Source: Gemmataceae bacterium
GTDB lineage: Bacteria > Planctomycetota > Planctomycetia > Gemmatales > Gemmataceae
Reading direction: 5' to 3'
DNA length: 24,542 nt
Assembly (NCBI GenBank): GCA_036557565.1
Contig: DATBHJ010000238.1
Span: forward strand, 1 to 24,542
The position numbers and the translations under genes were made by a program. How positions within the stretch are numbered: position 1 is the stretch's first letter; each line of letters starts with the position of its first letter. Shown in pieces: positions 1 through 21,052 of this stretch. The notes under the pieces are model-generated. The model worked only from the letters and a program-made list of their open reading frames with translations, searched no databases and was not told where the DNA came from.

Positions 1-52
1 CAGCGCAGCGGAGTAAGCGGCAGTGCAGACAATCGCTTACTCCGCTGCGCTG
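1..52. repeat. GC-rich palindrome with 19-bp arms (1-19 / 34-52) and a 14-nt loop; it may continue off the left edge
   Basis: cagcgcagcggagtaagcg and cgcttactccgctgcgctg are exact reverse complements. The element lies downstream of the kinase stop. Confidence 0.8.
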
Positions 53-1742: not shown

Positions 1743-1896
1743 AAGAGAGTTACGATGAATCACACGAATAAACACGAATAAAAATCAGAGCCTGAAGCGT
1801 AAGCGAAGGAATGGCAACCCTAGCTCACGCTGCAGGTTCTGTATTCTTTTTTGGTCTTTTATTCGTGTTATTCGTGTGATTCGTGGTGACTCTCTT
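1743..1896. repeat. CACGAAT-heptamer palindromic element, gene-less copy A (about 154 bp hairpin)
   Basis: The outer ends aagagagt (1743-1750) and actctctt (1889-1896) are complementary. The left arm carries GATGAAT/CACGAAT/CACGAAT at 1754, 1763 and 1773. The right arm carries ATTCGTG at 1861, 1870 and 1879 (9-bp period). A nested imperfect inner hairpin pairs cctgaagcgtaagc with gctcacgctgcagg. The right end overlaps the stop codon (1895-1897) of the oxidoreductase gene. Confidence 0.85.
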
Positions 1897-2971
1897 ACTC
1901 TTCCTCGCTCAAGGGGAGCGTAACCGCAATGCCGGTGCGAGCGCTGCGGGCGACCGCCTCGGTGAACTCCATGTACGCCACGCCCGTGTCAAAGCTGGTC
2001 AGCTGCACAGGCGTTCCCAGGCGGATCGAGTCCACGAAATCCGCCTCGACCTGCCAGCCGCGCGCCTTCTCCTTGGGAATGGGGATTTCCCGCAGCGATT
2101 CGGCGGGCGCTGGTGCGGCGCCGTACGTACGGCTGACACCGAGAATGCGATCGTCGAGCAAGTCATAATAAAGGACTCCCTCGGTGCCATATAACTGGAT
2201 GGCGGCTCCCTGGCCGAATGGCGTCACCCCGCTGAAGTGGTAACTGGTACGAGCGCCATTGGTCAATACGCTAAGCACCTGCACGCTGTCCGGCGTGCCC
2301 ACCGGCCGGCGCACGCCGCTCTCCGGATCGATGCGTTCGAGAGTGAAAGCGTGCGCCTGGGCCAACACCCGCAATGGTGGCGGCACCCAGCGCAACAGCG
2401 TCTCATGAACTATGCCCAGAGTCAGCATGTTGACGCCCGACAAGGCCGCGTCTTGCCGCCACGATAACGGAGAGACCGGGTCCGCCAGGGCGCCATTGCG
2501 ACTGTAAACATGGACTTCGCGCAGCTCGCCGATGAAGCCTTCCCGAATCAGCTCGCGCATGACTGTGTCGCCTTTGAGTCCGTAGGGACTGGGCACAATT
2601 TGGCAGACCAGGCGAGGATGACGCCGCGCCGCGGCAAGCATCTCATGCGCCTCCGCCGCATCCATGCTCATGCGCGCCTCGGTCAAGACGTGCTTGCCGG
2701 CATGCAGGGCGGCCAGGGTGATAGGACAGTGCAGATACGGCCAGGTGCCGATGACCACGGCGTTAATGTCCGGGTCGGCGATCAGGTCTTCCCAGCGTTC
2801 GTAGGTATGTGGGATGTTGAACTCGCGGGCCACGGCAACCGTCGAGGCTTGCCGGCGATTGCACACGGCCGCGATTTCCACGTCGCTCAGCGCTTGCAGG
2901 CCCGGCAGGTGACGCAAACGAGTGTTGGCGCCGGCACCGATCAGACCGACGCGCAGGATGCGATGTGCCAT
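1895..2971 (-). CDS. Gfo/Idh/MocA family NAD(P)-dependent oxidoreductase
   Basis: The N-terminal Rossmann motif is RVGLIGAGANTRLRHLPGL. The length of 358 aa and overall layout are typical of the family. The start is an ATG at 2971. Confidence 0.8.
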   Translation of the reverse strand: MAHRILRVGLIGAGANTRLRHLPGLQALSDVEIAAVCNRRQASTVAVAREFNIPHTYERWEDLIADPDINAVVIGTWPYLHCPITLAALHAGKHVLTEARMSMDAAEAHEMLAAARRHPRLVCQIVPSPYGLKGDTVMRELIREGFIGELREVHVYSRNGALADPVSPLSWRQDAALSGVNMLTLGIVHETLLRWVPPPLRVLAQAHAFTLERIDPESGVRRPVGTPDSVQVLSVLTNGARTSYHFSGVTPFGQGAAIQLYGTEGVLYYDLLDDRILGVSRTYGAAPAPAESLREIPIPKEKARGWQVEADFVDSIRLGTPVQLTSFDTGVAYMEFTEAVARSARTGIAVTLPLSEEE

Positions 2972-3039: not shown

Positions 3040-3900
3040 TTACGGACGAAAGGAAATCAGCTTGAACAGCTTGTCGGTGGCGCTGGGTTTTTTGGCCAGC
3101 GCCTCCTGGCCGGACTTGTGCAAGAACTCGCTCCACGCCTCGGCATTGGCCGGCAGTTCCTGTCCCGTGATTTCGCGCAGCGATTCCGTCGCCCGATTGC
3201 GCAGAGCTATGTCCTGTTCGGTGCGCAACACCGAGACCAGCGCGTCAGCAGCCTGGTACTGCCGGAAATGCGCCAGGGCACGGGCGGCGTAGATGCGTTG
3301 ATTGAGGTCGTTCTGCTTGTCTCCCGACGGCCCCGTCCCCGGCGGCGCCTTGAGGATGCGCACCAGCAGATCGACGGCGGCCGGATTGCCGTTAACGCCG
3401 AGCGCTTGCAACGACTGCTCCTGAATGGTTTCCATCGCATCCGGCCGATCCCGCTGGAAATAGGAAGCGCGCTCGTAAGAGTCCATCAGCGCCTGGGCGG
3501 CGCGCGGATCCTTGAAGTGCTGCAGCGACGAGATAGCGGCCAACCGGCACAACGGCTGCGGATCGCTGGTAGCGCTCTGGACCAGCAGCTTGACGATCAC
3601 GTCTTGCTGTTGTTGGTTGCCGCCGTGTTGCAGCGGCTCGGTCAGCGAACCTAACGCTTTGCTTTTCTTGTCGCCGTCAGTGCTGTTGCGAATGACCCAC
3701 AGCGGATCGGGCGCGGGCTTGAACATATCCTTGAACTTGAAATCGCGGCTGGTGACTTCGTCCCAGAACCCCGCGCAGCCGCTGAGAGCGCAGACAGCCA
3801 ATACGGAATGCAAGACACCAGCCCGCAGCGTCCGCAAGGGCGCCCCTTGCGGACGCTGCGGGCTGGTGTTCTGATTTCCGCATTGTTGACGCAGCTGCAC
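3040..3900 (-). CDS. HEAT-repeat lipoprotein
   Basis: A lipobox (LAVCALSGC) follows an Arg-rich n-region. HEAT/PBS-lyase-like repeats include AAISSLQHFKDPRAAQALM, SLQALGVNGNPAAVDLLV and AARALAHFRQYQAADALV. I chose the GTG at 3900 because GGGAGGG lies 6 nt upstream. The ORF-track start at 4128 would add about 75 residues with no signal-peptide logic. Confidence 0.6.
   Translation of the reverse strand: MQLRQQCGNQNTSPQRPQGAPLRTLRAGVLHSVLAVCALSGCAGFWDEVTSRDFKFKDMFKPAPDPLWVIRNSTDGDKKSKALGSLTEPLQHGGNQQQQDVIVKLLVQSATSDPQPLCRLAAISSLQHFKDPRAAQALMDSYERASYFQRDRPDAMETIQEQSLQALGVNGNPAAVDLLVRILKAPPGTGPSGDKQNDLNQRIYAARALAHFRQYQAADALVSVLRTEQDIALRNRATESLREITGQELPANAEAWSEFLHKSGQEALAKKPSATDKLFKLISFRP
3815..3869. 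repeat. Perfect palindrome with 26-bp arms (3815-3840 / 3844-3869) and a 3-nt centre (cgc)
   Basis: acaccagcccgcagcgtccgcaaggg cgc cccttgcggacgctgcgggctggtgt; the arms are exact reverse complements. It lies inside the proposed 5' coding end of the HEAT lipoprotein gene. Confidence 0.9.
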
Positions 3901-6061: not shown

Positions 6062-8794
6062 TTACTCACCCTTGCTGGCGCTGCGCGCCGGGGTCCCAGC
6101 GAGTTCTTGCCGCCATTCATCGATCAGCGACGCCACCAGCGCCGTCCATCCCGTCTGATGGCTCGCCCCCAGGCCGGCCCCGTTGTCGGCGTGGAAGTAT
6201 TCGTAAAACAAGAGCAAGTCGCGCCAGTGCGGGTCTTGCTGGAAAGGGGCTTCCCCGCCATACACGGGTCGGCGGCCCTCCTCGTCGCGCGTGAAGATGC
6301 GGATGAGGCGATCGGCGATCTCGCGGGCCATTTGCTGGAACGTGAGCGGCTTGCCGTTCGAGGCCGGCGTGGCCACAGCGAAGGAGGGGCCGAACGCCGT
6401 ACCTAGCTTGCGCAAAGACTCGATCAGCAAAAATGTCGTCGGAAACCAGATCGGCCCACGCCAGTTCGAGTTGCCGCCCTTGATCTTCGACACGCTCTCG
6501 GCCGGCTCGTAACCCACGGTGGTGCCGTCGAAGACGAACGGCTCCTCCAGGTGTGCCCGCGACAGGCTGCGGACGCCATAGGGCGATAAGAACTCGTTTT
6601 CGTCGAAAAGGCGTTCCATGATACGGCGCAGCTGCTTGTCGTCGAGGATGGTGAGGACGTAGGTTTTGTTCTCTCCTTCGCCAACCTCGTGAACAACCTC
6701 ACGCACCAAGTCAGGGCGGTTGCGCAAAAACCAGTGGAAGGCGCCGCGGAACTCCTGGAACGGTTTGATCCAGCCGGTTTCCAGGCGCTCGATGGCGAAC
6801 AGCGGGATGAGTCCGACCAGCGAGCGCAGGCGAAACTTGCGGAAACCTCCGTCGGGATAACGCAACACGTCGTAGAAAAAGCCGTCTTCCTCGTCCCATA
6901 GTTGAAAGGGGCGGTTGCCCATGTGTTTCATGGCAGCGGCGACATAGGCGTAATGCTCGAAGAATTTGATGGCCATTGACTCGTAGATGGGATTCTCCTT
7001 GGCCAACTCCAGGGAGATGCGCATAAGGTTCAGACAAAACATGCCCACGTAGCCGGTAGCGTCGGACTGCTCAAGCACGGCGCCGTCGCCGCAGCTCATG
7101 CTGCGATCGACCACGGTGATGTTATCCATGCCCAGGAAGCCGCCCTCGAAGATGTTATTGCCCTCGCGGTCAACCTTGTTGACCCACCAGGCGAAATTAA
7201 TGAGCAACTTGTGAAAGCAGCGTTCCAGAAAGGGCCGATCAGCCCGGCCGCTGCGAATGCGATCCATGTTGTAGACACGCCAGACGGCCCAGGCATGAAC
7301 CGGAGGATTCAGGTCGGAAAACTCCCATTCATAAGCCGGGATTTGCCCATTGGGATGCTGGAACTGCTCGAACAACAACCAATACAACTGGTCCTTGGCG
7401 AACTGCGGATCGATCACGGCAAGAGGGATGCACTGAAACGCGAGATCCCAGGCGGCAAACCAGGGATACTCCCATTTGTCTGGCATAATGAGCACGCGCA
7501 AGGAATTCAGGTGCCGCCAGTGCTGATTGCGGATGTGCAGGCGCGACGGCGGCGGCGCCGGCAGACCCGGATCGCCATTGAGCCAGAGATTCACGTCGAA
7601 GATATAGTTCTGTTTGTTCCACAACAGGCCGGCGAAGGCGCGGCGCTGAACCTCCCGTTCCTCGGCGGTGGCGCGCGGCGGATGAAGGGCAGCGTAGAAC
7701 TCGTCGGCTTCCGCCTTGCGGCGGGCGATCACAGCATCCACTTCTTCCAACGGCGACGACAACCCCGAGTCATCGCTCAGACGCAGACGTAGCACGACAG
7801 AGCCAGCGGGAGGAACAGCGGGAAAACGATAATGCAGAGCGGCCTTGGTGCCTTCTCGCTGGGGATTGAGGCAATCTTCACCATGGATGATGTGGCGATG
7901 GAAGGCGTCCTTGACGTAAGGCCGGCGACTCTTGTTGCCCGGACCATAGACACGAGGGCCATTCGTCTCGTTGAAGGTGAACAGCACGCGTCCACCCGGG
8001 GGCGCATACAAGATGCGCTGTCCCAAACGATAAGACACGGGAATATGTGTCATCGTTTCGACGGCGGAATCATCGGTGACGAGACTGACGAAACCAGGCC
8101 CGCTGAGGCCAGGACGAATGCTCGGCTCCGGCGTCAGGTGCAACGTCCAGGCGTTGGGGCCGCGCGCCCAGATGTTGCGAAACCACAAGTGCGGCAGCAG
8201 GTGCAGCGGCGCCGCCGCGGGGCCGCGATTAAACGCCTCGATGCGAATGCAATAATCTTCCGGCGTCGCCTTGGCATATTCGATGACGATGTCGAAATAG
8301 CGATTGTCGTTGAAGATGCCGGTGTCGAGCAGCTCAAACTCGAATCCCTGGCCCTTGCGACGGTGGTTCTCGGCGATCAGCCAGTCATAGGGGAACTCGC
8401 TCTGCGGATACTTGTAGAGATACCTCATGTACGAATGCGTCGGCGTATTATCGACGTGAAAATAATACTCCTTCACGTCCTCGCCGTGATTGCCCTCGTC
8501 CGGGGTCAGGCCGAACAGCCTTTCCTTCAATATGGGATCGCGTTCGTTCCAGAAAGCGGGAGCAAAACAAAGAAGCTGATAGCGATCGCAAATGCCGGCA
8601 ATGGCATCCTCGCCCCAGCGATAGGCTTTGCTGCGAGACAGGTCGTGGGTCAGATAGTTCCACACGTCGCCGTCCGCGCTGTAATCTTCGCGGACAGTGC
8701 CCCAGGAGCGCTCGCTGACATACGGTCCCCAGCGGCGCCAGCCGCTGTTATCGTCGTGTATTTCCTGCAGGCGCTCGTGTTCGCGTGTGTTCAT
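6062..8794 (-). CDS. GH63-like (MGH1-like / glucosidase family) glycoside hydrolase
   Basis: The N-terminus [24 protein letters not shown]...[14 protein letters not shown]...[24 protein letters not shown] is typical of the roughly 900-aa bacterial glucosidase family. The C-terminal (alpha/alpha)6-type region contains [16 protein letters not shown] take the start as the ATG at 8794 (MNTREHE); the 21 upstream codons of the ORF track translate the repeat arm. Confidence 0.8.
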
Positions 8795-8799
8795 TCTCA

Positions 8800-9280
8800 A
8801 AAATTCCATCACGAAAACACGAAAGGAGGAAGACACGAATAAGACAGAATAAGACAAAAATCTCAGAGGACGACACGCTTGATGGCAAGCGTGGGAGCAT
8901 TGAAGTTCAACAGCAGGCCGATATGGAGGCCCGTAGCTTTCAAGTAAGATTTCAATTGAGCATAATGAACGTCCTCAAACGCCTTGATCGCCTGGAGTTC
9001 CAGAATGATGGTTTGCTCGATGACCAAATCGAGGCGATGAACGCCCACATCCACTCCTTCAAAGAATACATGAATCTCTTTTTGCCTCTCGAAGGCGATC
9101 TGCCGATGCTCCAAGGCGACTTCCATAGCACGTTGATAAATGGCCTCCAGAAAGCCCGGCCCCAGCGTCTTGTGTACCTCCACCGCTGCCGCCAGAACGC
9201 GCCCCGAAAGCTCCTCAAAGTTGTGTCCCACCTTTTTTTCCTTTCGTGTCTTCTTCCTTTCGTGTTTTCGTGATTCGTTT
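8800..9280 (-). mobile_element. Inverted-repeat-bracketed single-gene cassette: CACGAAW-heptamer arms enclosing a GxxExxY nuclease gene
   Basis: The arm 8808-8839 (atcacgaaaacacgaaaggaggaagacacgaa) is the reverse complement of 9243-9274 with one mismatch. A perfect 10-bp tandem gaataagaca x2 lies at 8837-8856. The unit fills the rpe stop (9281) to GH63 start (8794) interval. Mobility is inferred, not shown. Confidence 0.45.
8863..9231 (-). CDS. GxxExxY protein (PD-(D/E)XK nuclease superfamily, PDDEXK_3-like)
   Basis: The signature GPGFLEAIY (G-x-x-E-x-x-Y) is followed by a core with a PD-(D/E)XK-like layout ([22 protein letters not shown]); I have not assigned catalytic residues. The most plausible start is the GTG at 9231, preceded by aaaggaaaaaaag. 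The ORF-track ATG at 9387 lies inside rpe. Confidence 0.8.
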
Positions 9281-9964
9281 TTAGGAAGGAGCAATGGGCA
9301 ATATTGCGGTGCGCAAGCGCTGCATGGCGGCGGCCACACCTTCTGGCGCTCCGAAGATCGCCGAGCCGGCCACCAGCACGCGCGCACCCGCCTCCACTAC
9401 TCGCGTCGTCGTCGCTGCGTCGATGCCGCCGTCCACTTCCAGCTCGATGTCCGCTTTTGTTTCATCGATCATTTGCCGCAGCATGCGTATTTTGCCGAGC
9501 GTGTTGGCAATGAACTGCTGGCCACCGAAACCGGGATTGACCGTCATCACCAATACCAGATCGACATCGGGCAAAATTTCGGCGATGGCAATGGGCGACG
9601 TCGCGGGATTGAGCACGACGCCGGCTTTCTTGCCCAGCGCCGTGATGTGCTGCACGGTGCTGTGTAGGTTGACCGCATTCTCGACATGCACCAGCATGGA
9701 ATCGCCGCCGGCCTTGGCGAACGCGTCGAGGTAGCGGATCGGCTGTTCGATCATCAAGTGAACTTCCAGCGGCAATTTCGTGATGGGCCGCAGTGCCTTG
9801 ACAACTACCGGTCCCATGGTGATGTTGGGCACGAAATGGCCGTCCATGACATCGACGTGAATGCGATCGGCCCCGGCCTGCTCGGCCTCGCGTACTTGTT
9901 CGCCCAACCGCGCGAAGTCAGCTGCGAGGATGGACGGGGCCAACTTGACGACAAGTGGACTCAT
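9281..9964 (-). CDS. rpe: Ribulose-phosphate 3-epimerase
   Basis: Diagnostic segments are LAPSILAADFARLGEQV, IHVDVMDGHFVPNIT, VNPGFGGQ and VDGG. I chose the ATG at 9964 (MSPLVVK), which has AAGGA 8 nt upstream and sits 4 nt after the pgl stop. Confidence 0.9.
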   Translation of the reverse strand: MSPLVVKLAPSILAADFARLGEQVREAEQAGADRIHVDVMDGHFVPNITMGPVVVKALRPITKLPLEVHLMIEQPIRYLDAFAKAGGDSMLVHVENAVNLHSTVQHITALGKKAGVVLNPATSPIAIAEILPDVDLVLVMTVNPGFGGQQFIANTLGKIRMLRQMIDETKADIELEVDGGIDAATTTRVVEAGARVLVAGSAIFGAPEGVAAAMQRLRTAILPIAPS

Positions 9965-14441: not shown

Positions 14442-15809
14442 ATGCAAGCGACTCTTCGCTTACGATTCAGGCTCTGTCTGCTTCCGGCTCTCCTCTTGAT
14501 CCTTACTGCTTCCGTGTACGCCGACGATTGGCCGCAGTGGCTCGGTCCGCAGCGCGACGCCATCTGGCGCGAGAGCGGCATTCTCGACAGGTTTCCCGCA
14601 GGCGGTCCCAAGGTCCGCTGGCGGACGCCGATCGGCGCCGGCTACTCTGGTCCCGCCGTTGCCAACGGCCGCGTCTACGTCACTGACCGCGTTCTCGATC
14701 AGGGTGTGAAAAACCCCAGAAATGCCTTCGATTCCAAGTCGCGCATTCCCGGTAAGGAACGCGTTCTGTGCCTGGACGAGAAGAACGGCGGGGTGCTGTG
14801 GAAACACGAATACGATTGCACGTACCAGATTTCCTACGCCGATGGACCGCGGGCCACGCCGCTGATCCACGAGGGACGAGTCTACACCCTCGGCGCGATG
14901 GGCAACTTATTCTGCCTCGATGCCGACAAGGGCAAGGTGATTTGGTCGAAGAACTTTGTGTCCGACTACAAGGCGCCGGTGCCTTTGTGGGGCTTCGCTG
15001 CCCATCCGCTGCTCGACGGCGACAAGCTCATCTGCCTGGTCGGCGGCAACGACCACATCGTCGTTGCCCTGGATAAGAACACCGGCGCGGAAAAGTGGCA
15101 TGCCCTCTCGTTCAAGAAACGAGAGACACAGATCGGTTACTGTCCGCCCATGATCTACACCATCGGCGGCAAACGGCAGCTCATCATCTGGCATCCGGAG
15201 TCCGTCAACGGACTCGATCCCCAGAGCGGCGAACTGTTCTGGTCGCAGCCGTTTTCCGTAAGGGCGAACTTGACCATTCCGACGCCGCGCCAGGACGGTG
15301 ATTTGCTCTTTCTGACCTCATTCTACAACGGCGCCATGATGCTCCAGTTCCAGGGCGACAAGCCGAGCGTACTTTGGCGCAGCGAGGTCACGAGCGAAGA
15401 TCCCAGAAGAACCGACACGCTCAACAGCATCATGCCCACACCGTTTCTCAAGGACGGCTACGTCTACGGCATGTGCAGTTACGGCGAGATGCGCTGCCTC
15501 CGCGCTCCAGATGGCAAACGAGTGTGGATGAGCCTCAAGGCCGCGGAGGTCCCCGATGAGAGCGTGCGCTGGGCCAACGTTTTTTTGATTGCCCAGGGCG
15601 ATCGCTTCTTCTTGCCCAACGAAAAGGGCGATCTCGTCATCGCCCGGATGACGCCGAAATGCTACGAAGAGATCGATCGCGCTCACATCCTGGATCCGAC
15701 CGATCCCTCACCGGGCCGGCTGGTGGTTTGGTCGCACCCGGCCTTCGCCAACAAGTCGATGTACGCCCGCAACGATAAAGAGATCGTCTGCGTTTCGTTG
15801 GCCAAGTAG
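14442..15809 (+). CDS. Secreted PQQ-like beta-propeller repeat protein (BamB/PQQ-enzyme-repeat family)
   Basis: A signal peptide (MQATLRLRFRLCLLPALLLILTASVYA) is followed by DDWPQWLGPQRD. Recurrent propeller blades include NGRVYV, EGRVYTLG, GDKLICL and DGYVYG. The ATG at 14442 replaces the ORF-track start at 14253. Confidence 0.8.
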   Translation: MQATLRLRFRLCLLPALLLILTASVYADDWPQWLGPQRDAIWRESGILDRFPAGGPKVRWRTPIGAGYSGPAVANGRVYVTDRVLDQGVKNPRNAFDSKSRIPGKERVLCLDEKNGGVLWKHEYDCTYQISYADGPRATPLIHEGRVYTLGAMGNLFCLDADKGKVIWSKNFVSDYKAPVPLWGFAAHPLLDGDKLICLVGGNDHIVVALDKNTGAEKWHALSFKKRETQIGYCPPMIYTIGGKRQLIIWHPESVNGLDPQSGELFWSQPFSVRANLTIPTPRQDGDLLFLTSFYNGAMMLQFQGDKPSVLWRSEVTSEDPRRTDTLNSIMPTPFLKDGYVYGMCSYGEMRCLRAPDGKRVWMSLKAAEVPDESVRWANVFLIAQGDRFFLPNEKGDLVIARMTPKCYEEIDRAHILDPTDPSPGRLVVWSHPAFANKSMYARNDKEIVCVSLAK

Positions 15810-15873
15810 CCGGTTAGCCGCGACGCGCAGCGGAGCGCGAACGCGCTCCCCTTCGGGTCGCGGCTAACCGGCT
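15808..15873. terminator. Bidirectional hairpin between convergent genes (17-bp outer arms plus a nested 8-bp hairpin)
   Basis: agccggttagccgcgac (15808-15824) is the exact reverse complement of gtcgcggctaaccggct (15857-15873). The inner hairpin is ggagcgcg aa cgcgctcc (15832-15849). The arms overlap both stop codons (15807-15809 and 15872-15874). Confidence 0.6.
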
Positions 15874-18800
15874 ATCTCAATCCCAGACGTTTGAGCCGGC
15901 TGAGGAAAGTGGTGCGGGCCATGCCCAGAGCGCGGGCGGCCTCGGCCTTGTTGCCTCCGGCGGCAGCAAGAGCGCGAACCAATCGGTCACGCTCGCGCCG
16001 TTCGCGTTCCGCTCGTTCGTTCTGGATTGCCGACATCAAGGCCGGCGGCGCCACGATGCCCGAAGGCGTCGGGGTGTAATTCGAGAGCGGCGACCAGTGC
16101 TCCGCTGCTTCGCGGACGTCGTCGTCCAAAGGACTGTGCTCGTCCTTGAAAAAAGAGGGAACGGCGCGCAGCTCGGCCGGCAGCTCATCGATCGTCACCA
16201 GCGGTTTCTCGGCGATGACGACGGCGTGTTGGATAGCATTCTCCAACTGGCGGATGTTGCCCGGCCACGGGTAAGCCTTGAGACAGGCCAGGGCGTCGTC
16301 ATCGATGTTGGCAACTTGTTTGTTCATGCGCGCGCTGTAGAGGCGTAGAAAGTGCTGGGCCAGCTCCGGAATGTCCTCGGCCCGTTCGCGCAGAGGCGGC
16401 AGGTGAATCCGCAGGACGTTGAGGCGATAGAACAAGTCCTCGCGGAAACGATTCTGGCGCATGAGCATTTCCAGGTCCTGGTGCGTGGCTGCGAGGATGC
16501 GCACGTCCACCTTGACTGGCTCGCTGGAGCCGACGCGCTCAAACGTCATTTCTTGCAGTACGCGCAGCAGCTTGATCTGCACCTCGACGCTAATGTCGCC
16601 GATCTCGTCGAGAAAGAGCGTGCCGCCGTCGGCCGCCTCGAAACGGCCCACCTTGTCGCGGATGGCGCCGGTGAATGCCCCCTTGACGTGTCCGAAAAGT
16701 TCACTTTCCAACAAGCCGGGCGACAACGCCGAACAATGGACGGCGATGAACGGCTTGGTGGCGCGGGGGCTGTTTTCGTGGATGGCTCGTGCCAGCAGTT
16801 CCTTGCCGGTGCCGCTTTCGCCGCGGAGCAGGACGACGGAGTCGGTGGCGGCGACCTTGCGCACGTGTTGCATCAGGTTCCGAACCTGCAGACTGGAGCC
16901 AATCATGCCGTTGTCCGCGGTTCGCGGTTCGCCGTTGGTTGTCTGGGGTTCGCCGTCGGCGAGCGGTGGAGCGAGGGCCGGCGGTGGTTGGCGGACGGCG
17001 GAGAGCTGGTTTTGCAAGGACATGATGCGGCGATTTTGCTCGCCAATCTTCTCGACCTTGGTTTGCAGCTCGCGGTTGAGCACCTCGATTTTGCGATGGC
17101 CCTCGGCGCTTAAGAGTGCCAGCACCGTCATCTGAGCGAAGGCCGTCAACAGGTGAAGATCTTCGGCCGTGTAGCCTCCGGTAGTGTCGGCTGCGGAGCC
17201 GCGCGGCTCCGCCGGGGGACCGAGGACGAGAATGCCGAGCAATTGTCCTTCGTGCAGCAGTCCCTGGGCGACCGTGCCGCCCAGGAAATGAAGCTGCCGG
17301 GGACCAGGTGCGGTTGGAACCAGCCCGTCGCTGACGCTTCGGGCGGGTCCAGACAGGGCCAGCGTGCCTTGGGACACCAATACCTCGACCAGCGGACAGC
17401 CGAAGGACAGCTCCGCCAGCGCGGGAGCGGGACCGAGCGGTTCGGTCAGCTGATACAGCGGTGGATCGCCCTGACGCAAGTAGACGGCGCCGCGGGAGGC
17501 GCCGAACAATTCCGCCGAGGTGTGCAGTAAGTGATGGGCCAGCGTCGGCGGATCGACCAGCTGTTCGATGGCCCGGCTCATGCGTTGCAGGGTGTGGTCG
17601 AGCTGGCTTTTCTCCCGTCGAAAATGGCGATAGCGGCGCAGCAGGAGCCGGCCGCGCAGACGATCGAGTCCGAACAGAACCAGCAACACCGTGCCGCTGA
17701 CCATCAGCATCTGAGCGAACGAATGCGCTTTGAGGGAAAGGCTATCCAGGAGCGACATGCCGGCGAAAACAACCAAGATGCCATAGTAGACGATGCCGAC
17801 AAGGAAGCTGATGAGGAGGTACACCACGCCGGAGTTGATAAGCTGATCCAGCTGCAAAAGTCGATAGCGCGTGATGCTGATGGCGAAGGCGACGGTGACG
17901 CATAGCGAGGCGAAGAACATCGGCCAGGTCGCCGCTCCACCGCCGAACCGCTGCCGTTCGGCCAGGGCCAGGTACAGCGAGTACCCGATCGGCGCCAGCG
18001 AGGCCAGGGTGCCGAACAAGATCCACTTGACCTGGTTGCGTTCGGTGACGTTTGAAGCCCTGCGGTAGCTATGCAAGAGGCAGACGACGCTGGTCAAGTA
18101 CCATAGTGCGGCCACACAGAAATAGCAGTAAATCTCAAAGAGTATCTCCCCGAGCAGGCCGGCAACATCCGTGGAGGTGTTCTGGAACAGCCAGCGAATG
18201 CGCAAGTAACCGGAGATCAACAAGAGCAGAAAGAACACCGGCGGCCCATACAGCGCCAACAAGACGCGCCGGGGCGCCGCATCGAGAATCGTCTTGGGCC
18301 GGGGGAAGACAAGATAAAAGTGCAAACTGACGGCTGGCAACAAGACGCTGCAAATCATGAAGACGAGGATCAACAACGGCTGAGTGACGATGCGGTGCCA
18401 GTGATAGCCACCCATGTACGCACCGAACGACACCAGGCAGAAAAGAAAAAACAACGTGGCCGAACGATCTTCCGGCCGCTTCCAGAAGACGATGGCGCCG
18501 ACGGCAAAGAGAATGATTTTCAGCGAGAACCACAACAGCGACGGCACCAGCGTCTCATACGGCGGCCGACCGACGTGCAGCCAGACCTCGTGTGTTTGGC
18601 CGTCAGCAGAAGACTTGTAGCCGACGCGGACGATCTCTTGCCCATCGATGATCAGGTGCGTCTTGCTCGAATCGGACCGGAGATCCTCCCGCGTGCCGGA
18701 TTCGACTACGTTGCTCCTCAAAACGTTCAATTCATGGAGAATCTCTACCCAGTTGGATACCTCCTGTCCGCCAATGGAAACGATCTCATCATCGCCGGAC

Positions 18801-19376: not shown

Positions 19377-20219
19377 GTGCAGGCATCGCTTGATTGGCTG
19401 GCTGGCAGTGGCGCCGAGTTCAGTCCGGGCGTTGGACGCTCCGGTCTTGCGCATCTGACCCATTATACAGCCCGTTATTGTGTCTGGGGCGATGGACCGC
19501 CTCTTGTGCTCGTTCCTGGATTGGCGGGGGGTTTCGAGCTATTGGGACCGCTGGCCCGTCTGTTGGCCCACGACTTTCAGGTCATCAGTTACCAGCTGCG
19601 AGGCGAGGACGATTGTTTCGCGCTGCGCCGCCGCTTCGATCTTCCCGATTTGGTTGCCGACTTGCGCGAGTTTCTGGACTGGTTCGGTCTGGAGCGGCCG
19701 CCGGTCCTGGGCGTCTCCTTCGGAGGCGTCCTGGCCCTGGAGCTGGCGATGCGCTGGCCACATCGCTTGCAAGCGCTCATCACCCAGGGAGTCGGAGCGC
19801 GCTTCGAGCGCGGCTTGATGCAGCAAGTGGCCGGCTGGGTGCTGTCGCGCTATCCGCTCCCCTCGGACAGCCCCTTCGTGAACCAATTTTTCAACCTGCT
19901 CTTCGGCGCCCGCCAGGAACCGGGGCGTTTGTTCGAGTTTGTGACCCGGCAGTGCTGGCAGACGGATCAGAGCGTGATGACGCATCGCTTTCATCTGGTC
20001 GAATCGTTCGATCCGGGGCCGCGCCTGGGCAAAGTCCGTGTACCGACGCTGCTCATGGCCGGCGACCGCGATTTGCTGGCGTCGCCGCAGAGTCTGCGCA
20101 ACCTGGCCCACGGCATTCCCAATACACGCCGCATCGAGCTGCCCGGTTGCGGCCACCTGGCTTTCGTGACCCAACCCGAAAGCGTCGCCGACGAAGTCAA
20201 ACGCTTCCTTCAGGATTGA
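19377..20219 (+). CDS. Alpha/beta-fold hydrolase
   Basis: The oxyanion-region segment is LVLVPGLAGG, the nucleophile elbow is GVSFGG (GxSxG), and the late acid and His are AGDRD and GCGHLAF. The start is a GTG at 19377 with GGAGGAG upstream. Confidence 0.8.
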   Translation: MQASLDWLAGSGAEFSPGVGRSGLAHLTHYTARYCVWGDGPPLVLVPGLAGGFELLGPLARLLAHDFQVISYQLRGEDDCFALRRRFDLPDLVADLREFLDWFGLERPPVLGVSFGGVLALELAMRWPHRLQALITQGVGARFERGLMQQVAGWVLSRYPLPSDSPFVNQFFNLLFGARQEPGRLFEFVTRQCWQTDQSVMTHRFHLVESFDPGPRLGKVRVPTLLMAGDRDLLASPQSLRNLAHGIPNTRRIELPGCGHLAFVTQPESVADEVKRFLQD

Positions 20220-20223
20220 GGGA

Positions 20224-20381
20224 GAAAAACAGCAAACCACGAATCACACGAATAACACGAAAAAAGACAGAACAGACGAGAAGAGGGGCGAACCGTCGCA
20301 CAACCCATTCGCCCGTCTTTTCTGTCTTTTTGCTTTTGTCTTTTATGCGTGTTATTCGTGTGATTCGTGGTTTGTTTTTTC
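20224..20381. repeat. CACGAAT-heptamer palindromic element, gene-less copy C (about 158 bp hairpin)
   Basis: A perfect 25-bp core, aaccacgaatcacacgaataacacg (20235-20259), pairs with cgtgttattcgtgtgattcgtggtt (20348-20372). Heptamers lie at 20238, 20247 and 20256, mirrored at 20345, 20354 and 20363 (9-bp period). The inner stem is gggcgaa/ttcgccc. The element fills the gap between the convergent stops at 20217-20219 and 20380-20382. Confidence 0.85.
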
Positions 20382-20970
20382 AGTCGCCGGCGGCGGTGCG
20401 GCGTTCGTGGCCGTAGCGCAGCTCGAAGCTGCCGTCGCGGTCAAAAACGCTTTCTTCGTCCCAATCGAAGGCGGTCCTGCTGGCGCGGTGCATCAGGGCC
20501 AGCCAGACGTGATCTGCGGGTAAGATACGGCGGTTAATTTTCCCAGACGAATCCACCTTGCGCGGCTCCAGTTGCAAGAAATGCTCATTGGCCGGCAGCG
20601 TCTGGGCCACGCACGTCAGAAATCCTGCGACCAGGTATCCCGCCAGGGCACCAAACAGCACCGCTCCACCCTGTTGCAGAATGGGGTTGTACAAAATAAG
20701 CGTGTGGATCAGCTCATTGGACGCCCAGCGCAGAAAGAGAAGCGTGGCGCTGAACAGCACGACGAGACTGAAACTATCCTCGTAGCCTTGCATGAAGGTA
20801 TCGTTTACCATCGACTCGAGCTGTCCGGCCAGCGGCTCGAAGAAATTGAACGCGACCAGTCCTGCCAACAGGATGTTGACGGTCATGGCAAAGGCCGGCA
20901 ACACGCCCTGTCGCCAAAAAGCGTAGGCCCCGGCCACCATGATGATAAACGTCATAAAACCCAGCAGCAT
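20380..20970 (-). CDS. CvpA-family (colicin V production-like) membrane protein
   Basis: Four hydrophobic helices occupy the N-terminal 130 aa (MLLGFMTFIIMVAGAYAFW..., VNILLAGLVAFNFFEPLAG, ...), followed by a soluble tail. The assignment rests on layout resemblance to CvpA proteins. Confidence 0.55.
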   Translation of the reverse strand: MLLGFMTFIIMVAGAYAFWRQGVLPAFAMTVNILLAGLVAFNFFEPLAGQLESMVNDTFMQGYEDSFSLVVLFSATLLFLRWASNELIHTLILYNPILQQGGAVLFGALAGYLVAGFLTCVAQTLPANEHFLQLEPRKVDSSGKINRRILPADHVWLALMHRASRTAFDWDEESVFDRDGSFELRYGHERRTAAGD

Positions 20971-20987
20971 ATCTTACCTCGACTACT

Positions 20988-21052
20988 GGCGAACGGCCGG
21001 CGTTAGCCGGCTGGTGGGGGGTCCACCAGCCGGCTAACGCCGGCCGTTCGCC
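20988..21052. repeat. Perfect 30-bp-arm palindrome (loop ggggt) between the GspE-like and CvpA-like genes
   Basis: ggcgaacggccggcgttagccggctggtgg (20988-21017) is the exact reverse complement of ccaccagccggctaacgccggccgttcgcc (21023-21052). It contains the CGTTAGCCGG core. Confidence 0.9.

Follow-up and report, generated by a model that had tools for sequence, protein, structure and literature searches.

Why should a small orphan gene interrupt an operon of pentose-phosphate and glycosidase genes? The question is raised by a Gemmataceae metagenome-assembled genome, of which one complete contig of 24,542 bp was analysed (the window hereafter, that is, the whole stretch of DNA). On its minus strand, the genes for 6-phosphogluconolactonase (pgl) and rpe lie upstream, and the gene for an MGH1-like/GH63 glycosidase lies downstream, of a 467-bp unit at 8808-9274. 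This unit consists of two arms and a single open reading frame (ORF), which is read in the same direction and encodes a protein of the GxxExxY family. It is a member of a widespread superfamily of minimal hairpin cassettes with many ORF-less derivatives, and this result explains the orphan gene that interrupts the operon.

The unit spans the entire spacer between the rpe stop at 9281 and the GH63 ATG at 8794. The first of these genes is identified by its match to TIGR01163 (1.5e-86), and the second starts at the same ATG as its orthologues. The 5' arm in the sense of the ORF (9243-9274, minus strand; AUCACGAAAACACGAAAGGAAGAAGACACGAA) is built of tandem 8-nt units, (N)CACGAAA, and starts 6 nt past the rpe stop codon. 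The 3' arm (8808-8839, minus strand) is its reverse complement with one mismatch, an A.C pair in the sense RNA, and its end is 13 nt from the GH63 ATG. Each arm is thus 32 nt long, with 31 of the 32 positions complementary (97%). A purine-rich, Shine-Dalgarno-like spacer (9232-9242, minus strand; AGGAAAAAAAG) forms the inner edge of the stem and separates the 5' arm from the GTG start; at this position the orthologues have AAGGAAAAA(C/GAAAT)ATG. The ORF of 122 codons, the sole one between the arms, occupies 8863-9231 of the minus strand (coding 8866-9231, stop 8863-8865). Between its stop codon and the 3' arm, two tandem 10-nt units (8837-8856, minus strand; GAATAAGACA on the plus strand) resemble the inner arms of both ORF-less hairpins of the window. 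The GC content of the ORF is 53.0%, against 60.0% for rpe and 59.7% for GH63, and its GC content at third codon positions is 64% versus 74-76% for the neighbours.

The inverted repeat is far longer than expected from base composition and nearest-neighbour frequencies, since the longest comparable repeat in 60 first-order Markov resamplings of the window was 13-19 nt, versus the 32 nt observed. The heptamer CACGAAW occurs 24 times in the window, where 7.7 +/- 2.8 copies are expected and where 24 was reached in 0 of 100 shuffles, and its copies are concentrated at 1763-1885, 8810-8840, 9242-9272 and 20238-20369. In the predicted minimum free energy fold of the minus-strand RNA the two arms are paired (-193.8 kcal/mol, z -5.1). 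A scan for consensus promoters and terminators found no terminator-like site in 8500-9600 and no promoter-like site at the cassette. An intrinsic (Rho-independent) terminator was considered and rejected, as the scan was empty there and the stem is 32 bp long, AT-rich and encloses 403 nt. No rRNA was detected anywhere in the window. The arms, their heptamers, the single enclosed ORF, the filling of the whole spacer, the lower GC content and the two gene-less hairpins had all been named in a preliminary description of this DNA, and sequence analysis confirms every one of them.

Loaded units, with both arms and ORF, are found at unrelated loci in Planctomycetota and Desulfobacterota. Close homologues of the window protein (72-79% identity) are present in unrelated contexts: between VWA_CoxE and HisF (L016, where the 38-nt arms are 92% complementary and have the same AATCACGAAAACACGAAAG core as the window), between PSD1 and DUF1501 (L008), and between the genes for a protein kinase and an nSTAND protein. 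The same arms as in the window occur at the metagenome loci L136, L137, L140, L141 and L142, and loaded CACGAAA cassettes occur in Desulfobacterota at L057 and L053. When one genome per GTDB species was scanned with an 18-nt arm core as the query, the core of the 5' arm, ATCACGAAARCACGAAAG, was present in at least 118 genome stretches from about seven phyla, the matches listed being from Desulfobacterales/Thermodesulfobacteriota, several Planctomycetota families, Bacteroidota, Acidobacteriota, Armatimonadota, Actinomycetota and others. Most of the matches listed are hairpins of 60-130 nt without an ORF, and a GxxExxY gene is found among them only at L053, L057 and L023, whose proteins belong to the same clade as the window protein (at least 56% identity). 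The ratio of ORF-less to loaded copies is roughly 20:1 among the matches listed, and about 4% of the 83 CACGAAA hairpins analysed are loaded. Both kinds of copy are found on one contig in the window, L008, L137 and L142. The arms are passed on together with the ORF, as a single unit, and over evolutionary time the unit does reach new sites.

The GxxExxY genes of other clades are enclosed by inverted arms of other tandem heptamers. These are CACAGAG (L035, Bacteroides finegoldii, Bernardetia), CACGAAG (L038), CGCAGAG (L084, Gemmatirosa), CACGGAT (L143, Treponema), CGCAGAT (L145), CATGTAGG (L147) and CGCGAAG (Sphingomonas, between fabD and fabG), and protein relatedness tracks the heptamer type across phyla. 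GxxExxY paralogues therefore carry arms comparable to those in the window. Throughout the superfamily, a cassette is one small ORF inside 25-45-nt inverted arms of tandem 7-8-nt units. The same arm architecture surrounds genes of PF05635, the '23S rRNA intervening sequence protein', a four-helix bundle that is unrelated to GxxExxY. Cassettes of this kind are found at L019 and L119 and on plasmids of Nostoc, Planktothrix, Anabaena, Treponema and Chlorohelix; one of them has a perfect inverted (AATTCAA)x4, and the arms of the Planktothrix cassette are AATCCCC/AATCGTA. The preliminary description had taken the unit for the loaded member of a palindromic element family, a view borne out by its presence at unrelated loci, by ORF-less hairpins about 20 times commoner and by other clades with heptamers of their own.

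At the rpe/GH63 site itself, the order pgl-rpe-cassette-GH63 is kept in relatives with a GH63 identity of 93% (L136), 89% (L003), 88% (L137) and 85% (L001), and the cassette proteins of these four, at 96-87% identity, diverge in step with GH63. The arms of the orthologues differ at about two positions, with the changes matched in both arms. In L153, a 9.3-Mb contig with 83% GH63 identity, the same pgl-rpe-GH63 order has no GxxExxY gene, and the spacer is occupied by a 120-nt hairpin of the CGCAGAG family that has no ORF. L154, at 76% GH63 identity, has the same order without a GxxExxY gene as well, with two GC-rich palindromes in the spacer, and its assembly has a loaded cassette elsewhere (L016). 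Present down to 85% identity and missing at 83% and 76%, the cassette makes the site polymorphic, and the locus is not invariant among relatives. The simplest history is one acquisition, in the ancestor of those Gemmataceae lineages whose GH63 identity is at least 85%, followed by vertical descent. In L001 (10437-13126), a long-read assembly, the GH63 orthologue beside the cassette is split in two frames (residues 1-214 and 210-896), which is either a frameshift pseudogene or an assembly error.

The protein in the window matches TIGR04256 GxxExxY (6.9e-39, 132.8 bits, cut-off 35) and PF13366 PDDEXK_3 (3.8e-38, 130.9 bits, cut-off 22), and its GxxExxY motif is G26-F-L-E29-A-I-Y32. In the catalytic motif, D68...E78-L-Q80, residues D68 and E78 are kept. 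D68, E78 and K80 are found in 120 of 122 close homologues, and Lys is also present at residue 80 in the orthologues L001 and L003; Q80 is found in the window copy and in a near-identical JGI contig (L002). With the substitution K80Q the window copy may be catalytically impaired, and Q80 in these two copies could be early catalytic decay or an ExQ variant. ExQ variants are sometimes active in restriction enzymes such as BglII. The AlphaFold2 model is a confident one (predicted local distance difference test, pLDDT, 84) and has an alpha-beta PD-(D/E)XK fold, and its nearest PDB structures by fold are Cas4 SSO0001, lambda-type exonucleases and the R2 endonuclease domain. Because their template modelling (TM) scores are all about 0.5, the assignment of the modelled protein to the PD-(D/E)XK fold is generic. 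A sequence search of the PDB with the protein gave no match. PADLOC gave a single match of 0.023 and PHROGs gave none, so that a known defence or phage role is unsupported. Between orthologues, the ratio of nonsynonymous to synonymous substitution rates (dN/dS) is 0.06-0.13 at a synonymous divergence (dS) of 0.4-0.5, by which measure the ORF is under purifying selection. The GxxExxY/PDDEXK_3 family is very large (15,487 clusters at 50% identity, E <= 1e-3). Its function was given as unknown in a 2012 superfamily survey (PMC3424549), and no later function was found in the literature searched, in agreement with what had been said before from the sequence. Many library matches of 250-295 aa are two-domain GxxExxY proteins with two matched stretches each, and at L148 tandem GxxExxY cassettes stand back to back.

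Pairing between the arms is largely kept: in the arms of 23 loaded cassettes, 730 of 783 positions are paired (93%), and some hairpin sub-lineages have an indel that is common to both arms. Since the arms are 88-100% identical between phyla and the proteins about 56% identical, the arm sequence is the more constrained of the two. Both neighbours are co-directional with the cassette in 9 of 10 gene-called or annotated cases, and cassettes start 35-130 nt past the upstream stop codon. Together with the lack of a promoter-like site, this co-directionality and this position point to a dependence on host transcription.

Both ORF-less hairpins of the window are of a CACGAAT sub-type. That at 1743-1896 (-71.9 kcal/mol, z -12.7) adjoins a GFO/IDH/MocA-like gene (1895-2971, minus strand) at its stop codon, and the genes on the two sides of the hairpin are co-directional. 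That at 20227-20380 (-83.7 kcal/mol, z -13.6) occupies the gap between the convergent genes 19377-20219 (plus strand) and 20380-20970 (minus strand), with A-runs and T-runs on its two sides. All three elements of the window therefore adjoin stop codons and occupy their intergenic gaps. The loops of the ORF-less hairpins were searched for remnants of an ORF, and only the inner-arm units proved to be common to these hairpins and the loaded copy. Rfam (E <= 1) has no family for the CACGAA hairpins and gave only spurious miRNA-type matches to other, GC-rich palindromes. The latter form a second, near-perfect and intergenic family in the window (1-52, 3799-3885, 15807-15874 and 20988-21052) with arms of 30-42 nt and loops of 2-14 nt, the spurious matches being to mir-5985 and mir-449. 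The two palindromes in the rpe/GH63 spacer of L154 are similar in style to this family.

Several loci elsewhere have unusual forms of the element. At L008 (4370-4880), at least five CACGAAA hairpins are piled in tandem over 500 nt downstream of a GxxExxY gene whose 5' arm is degenerate, and the number of units in the pile varies among metagenome contigs that encode an identical protein (L009-L015). At L138/L139 (about 2300-2990 in L138), the cassette has a 5' arm only; the TGA of this arm is the stop codon of a truncated SNF2/DEAH-type helicase ORF, and an apparent insertion sequence (IS) transposase gene takes the place of the 3' side. In L035 (5202-5697), the inverted repeat runs 13 nt past the heptamers (GAAGAAGAACTAA), so that the element supplies the last codons and the TAA stop of both convergent neighbour ORFs. 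In L057, a frameshifted ORF like that of a transposase associated with repetitive extragenic palindromes (RAYT) or of IS200 lies at 6702-7266, inside perfect 29-nt inverted repeats resembling such a palindrome (REP; GTGGGAGCGGCTTTCCAGCCGCGATTAAA), 2.5 kb from the loaded CACGAAA cassette, and its 82-aa fragment has no Pfam match. The four-helix-bundle cassettes of L164, L165 and L167 are in defence loci. The Planktothrix cassette is between DISARM drmD and BREX pglX, that of Anabaena cylindrica is between cas2 and cas1 in the opposite orientation, and that of Chlorohelix is between a DUF1156 gene and a Swt1-HEPN gene.

How could such a unit come to lie in an operon and be kept there? The explanation that we favour, and to which we give slightly better than an even chance, is a promoterless and evolutionarily mobile cassette like the intervening sequences (IVSs) of 23S rRNA, with arms that pair in the operon transcript, are cut there by RNase III and are recognised by a protein. 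The cassette would lack a promoter and be transcribed by read-through from pgl-rpe. In the transcript, the two arms would pair over about 32 bp (up to 41 bp in orthologues) and so enclose the ORF, and RNase III would cut this duplex as it does in the IVSs, freeing the ORF RNA and separating the rpe and GH63 messages. A perfect duplex of 32-41 bp is a canonical RNase III substrate, and excision by this enzyme is the favoured step by analogy. An insertion in an operon or in rRNA would be tolerable because of such excision and uncoupling. Sequence-specific recognition of the tandem units is probable, with the cognate cargo protein as its most plausible agent, since the conservation of the arms exceeds what pairing needs and element-specific covariation is weak.

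Several observations weigh against this explanation. If the sense RNA were under selection, an excess of G.U over A.C mismatches in the arms would be expected, and the excess observed falls short of significance (20:14, p = 0.39). In the 83 CACGAAA hairpins, arm identity within an element is 25.3/34, versus 24.6/34 between elements, a small difference even if the observed value was reached in 2 of 2000 permutations. Conservation in the arms is mainly of the consensus sequence, which suits recognition at the DNA or protein level at least as well as RNA pairing. The GxxExxY genes of L158 (a Fusobacteria plasmid) and L155 (Persicobacter) are flanked by direct and not by inverted repeats, the 25-nt duplication of L158 taking in the region upstream of the ribosome-binding site of the next gene. 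No conserved target was seen at the examined sites, and a search for target-site duplications was negative at the window, L016, L035, L140-142 and the occupied/empty pair L160/L162, with a power limited by the divergence of the empty sites. Finally, a purely selfish gene would not usually stay under long-term purifying selection in a copy that is inherited vertically, and there may be a function at the level of the host.

If the arms are read as DNA, the unit would be a transposon or homing element. The GxxExxY nuclease would then recognise the arms as terminal inverted repeats (TIRs) or as a cruciform, and would act by cut-and-paste or by cutting ORF-less hairpins that are filled by repair copying; ORF-less copies would be landing pads or derivatives like MITEs (miniature inverted-repeat transposable elements), and pairing in RNA would be incidental. 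This is possible, and on the whole we doubt it. The PD-(D/E)XK fold and the D...ExK residues, invariant in all but two of the close homologues, suit a nuclease of this kind, and so do the conservation of arm sequence across phyla beyond pairing, the co-variation of heptamer type with protein clade, the loaded and ORF-less copies on the same contigs, the varying copy number in the hairpin piles of L008-L015 and the insertions within the conserved pairs PSD1-DUF1501, fabD-fabG and rpe-GH63. However, the missing target-site duplications and conserved target count here too, and the four-helix-bundle cargo has no nuclease fold, yet the same architecture. The strong co-directional bias would be unexpected unless expression needs host promoters, the window copy is still under purifying selection in spite of K80Q, and the alternative occupant of the rpe/GH63 site is a hairpin of a different heptamer family rather than an 'empty' CACGAAA landing pad. 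The GxxExxY protein is a candidate mobility enzyme, as in one reading of the preliminary description.

Purifying selection would be less of a puzzle if the module benefited its host. The host would then have recruited the hairpins as RNA elements between cistrons or at 3' ends, where they would serve in processing, stabilisation or termination, and the small protein, gated in its expression by the stem, would do a job in the cell, for example in defence or RNA metabolism as a nuclease or as a binder of nucleic acids. Such a role would accord with the dN/dS of about 0.1 over a dS of 0.4-0.5 in the vertically inherited copy, with the position of the three window elements at stop codons and in gaps, including that at 20227-20380 between convergent genes with its A- and T-runs, with four-helix-bundle cassettes inside defence operons (drmD/pglX and cas2/cas1), and with the heptamer-repeat sites of Xanthomonas, which are positionally stable between species (PMC4692102). 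It is nevertheless improbable, because close relatives carry unrelated hairpin families or none at the same site, the insertion contexts are functionally unrelated, the consensus terminator scan is empty at the cassette, PADLOC and PHROGs give no support, and near-identical arms across phyla need horizontal movement. Least of all can the unit be a chance inverted repeat or a mere local terminator at an ordinary small gene. Only its position after the rpe stop codon fits this reading, to which we attach practically no weight; no terminator-like site was found, and it is refuted by the recurrence of the same arms at many loci in several phyla and by the resampling test, which gave nothing near 32 nt.

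The favoured explanation, of an IVS-like cassette cut out by RNase III, can be extended beyond the CACGAAA family, in a form that we put forward only tentatively. The 23S IVSs, the intergenic heptamer repeats (the short tandemly repeated repetitive sequences, STRRs, the Xanthomonas GGGAATC pairs and others) and the GxxExxY and four-helix-bundle/S23p genes, two orphan families of high copy number, would be one superfamily of hairpin micro-cassettes, in which each protein clade reads its own heptamer, RNase III excises the cassette and thereby allows it to persist in essential transcripts such as rRNA and operons, and spread needs the sense transcript and possibly an RNA intermediate. Such an intermediate is conceivable because Avd, which partners the reverse transcriptase in diversity-generating retroelements, is a homologue of the four-helix-bundle cargo, and PF05635 has been linked to these retroelements (PMC10053308). 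The unit in the window, as an IVS-type hairpin cassette outside rRNA with a PD-(D/E)XK cargo, may tie together three old puzzles. To our knowledge, two of them have stood for about 30 years, namely where the 23S IVSs come from and what the abundant intergenic heptamer repeats do. Should all belong to a single type of cassette, one set of experiments could address all three questions. Annotation could then mark such units as insertions rather than as members of operons, and tandem heptamers that small proteins read as a code would amount to a new system of nucleic-acid recognition.

Among known systems, homing endonuclease genes are similar in having a small nuclease-fold ORF within structured RNA that is excised from the host transcript, a putative excision in the case of the cassette, and I-Ssp6803I is a homing enzyme of the PD-(D/E)XK type. 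The presence/absence polymorphism at a conserved site (L153, L154) and the possible catalytic decay (K80Q) are further likenesses. In contrast to these genes, the cassette has no self-splicing intron or intein, its excision would fragment the transcript and not religate it, and cleavage of an 'empty' allele is not demonstrated for it. MITE/TIR transposons and the REP/BIME-RAYT system (BIME, bacterial interspersed mosaic element) also have few ORF-bearing and many short ORF-less palindromic copies with the same termini, which are intergenic and sometimes piled in tandem. However, the cassette has no DDE, HUH, serine or tyrosine transposase, its sole ORF being that of the 122-aa protein with the PD-(D/E)XK fold. 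Target-site duplications were looked for and not found, the arms consist of heptamers or octamers in tandem and not of unique inverted repeats or GTAG-type REPs, and the cassettes have a strong co-directional bias with the host genes.

The STRR/GGGGAYT, GGGAATC and TAACTGA repeats are, like the arms, intergenic tandem 7-nt units, often in paired inverted blocks able to form stem-loops, and their patchy distribution across phyla likewise suggests horizontal spread. The consensus of the cyanobacterial STRR1, reportedly from work of Mazel et al. in 1990, is CCCCAAT, and the Planktothrix four-helix-bundle arms, AATCCCC/AATCGTA, are a permutation of it. The GGGAATC repeats of Xanthomonas, with 70-75 convergent pairs per genome, are unexplained (PMC4692102), as are the TAACTGA repeats of Beggiatoaceae, Cyanobacteria and Bacteroidetes, which are mostly direct repeats upstream of start codons (PMC4679880). 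In the searchable text of these two papers, the repeats are read as simple sequence repeats, G-quadruplex formers or translational signals, and that text does not tie them to enclosed S23p or GxxExxY genes or to IVSs. No description of a link between GxxExxY genes and heptamer hairpin arms or architecture was found in the literature searched.

The closest likeness is to the IVSs of 23S rRNA. Those with an ORF for S23p, the four-helix bundle, are known from Leptospira, Coxiella, Brucella and Xanthomonas (PMC4990558), and small ORF-less ones of 83-112 nt from Salmonella and Photorhabdus (PMC2672173). The Coxiella IVS has a 28-bp terminal stem, tandem heptamers GACAGAT/GACAGAA and an S23p ORF in the sense of the transcript, and RNase III cuts inside its stem (PMC4990558). 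The cassette differs in that it lies between protein-coding genes and not in helix 25 or 45 of 23S rRNA, and in that its cargo has the PF13366 PD-(D/E)XK fold and not the PF05635 four-helix bundle. RNase III excision has been demonstrated for the IVSs and would be expected by analogy for the cassette. In both, a unit of about 430-470 nt ends in inverted repeats, whose pairing gives a stem of about 28-32 bp round a single ORF of about 120 codons, which is oriented like the host transcript and, putatively in the cassette, lacks a promoter. In both, tandem heptamers lie just inside the stem, the window having GACAGAA-like units at about 8840-8860, inside the 3' arm, and ORF-less versions exist. 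The analogy to four-helix-bundle IVS proteins drawn in the preliminary description thus holds in two respects: four-helix-bundle genes of PF05635 outside rRNA have heptamer arms like those of the cassette, and the Coxiella IVS has the corresponding stem and heptamers (PMC4990558).

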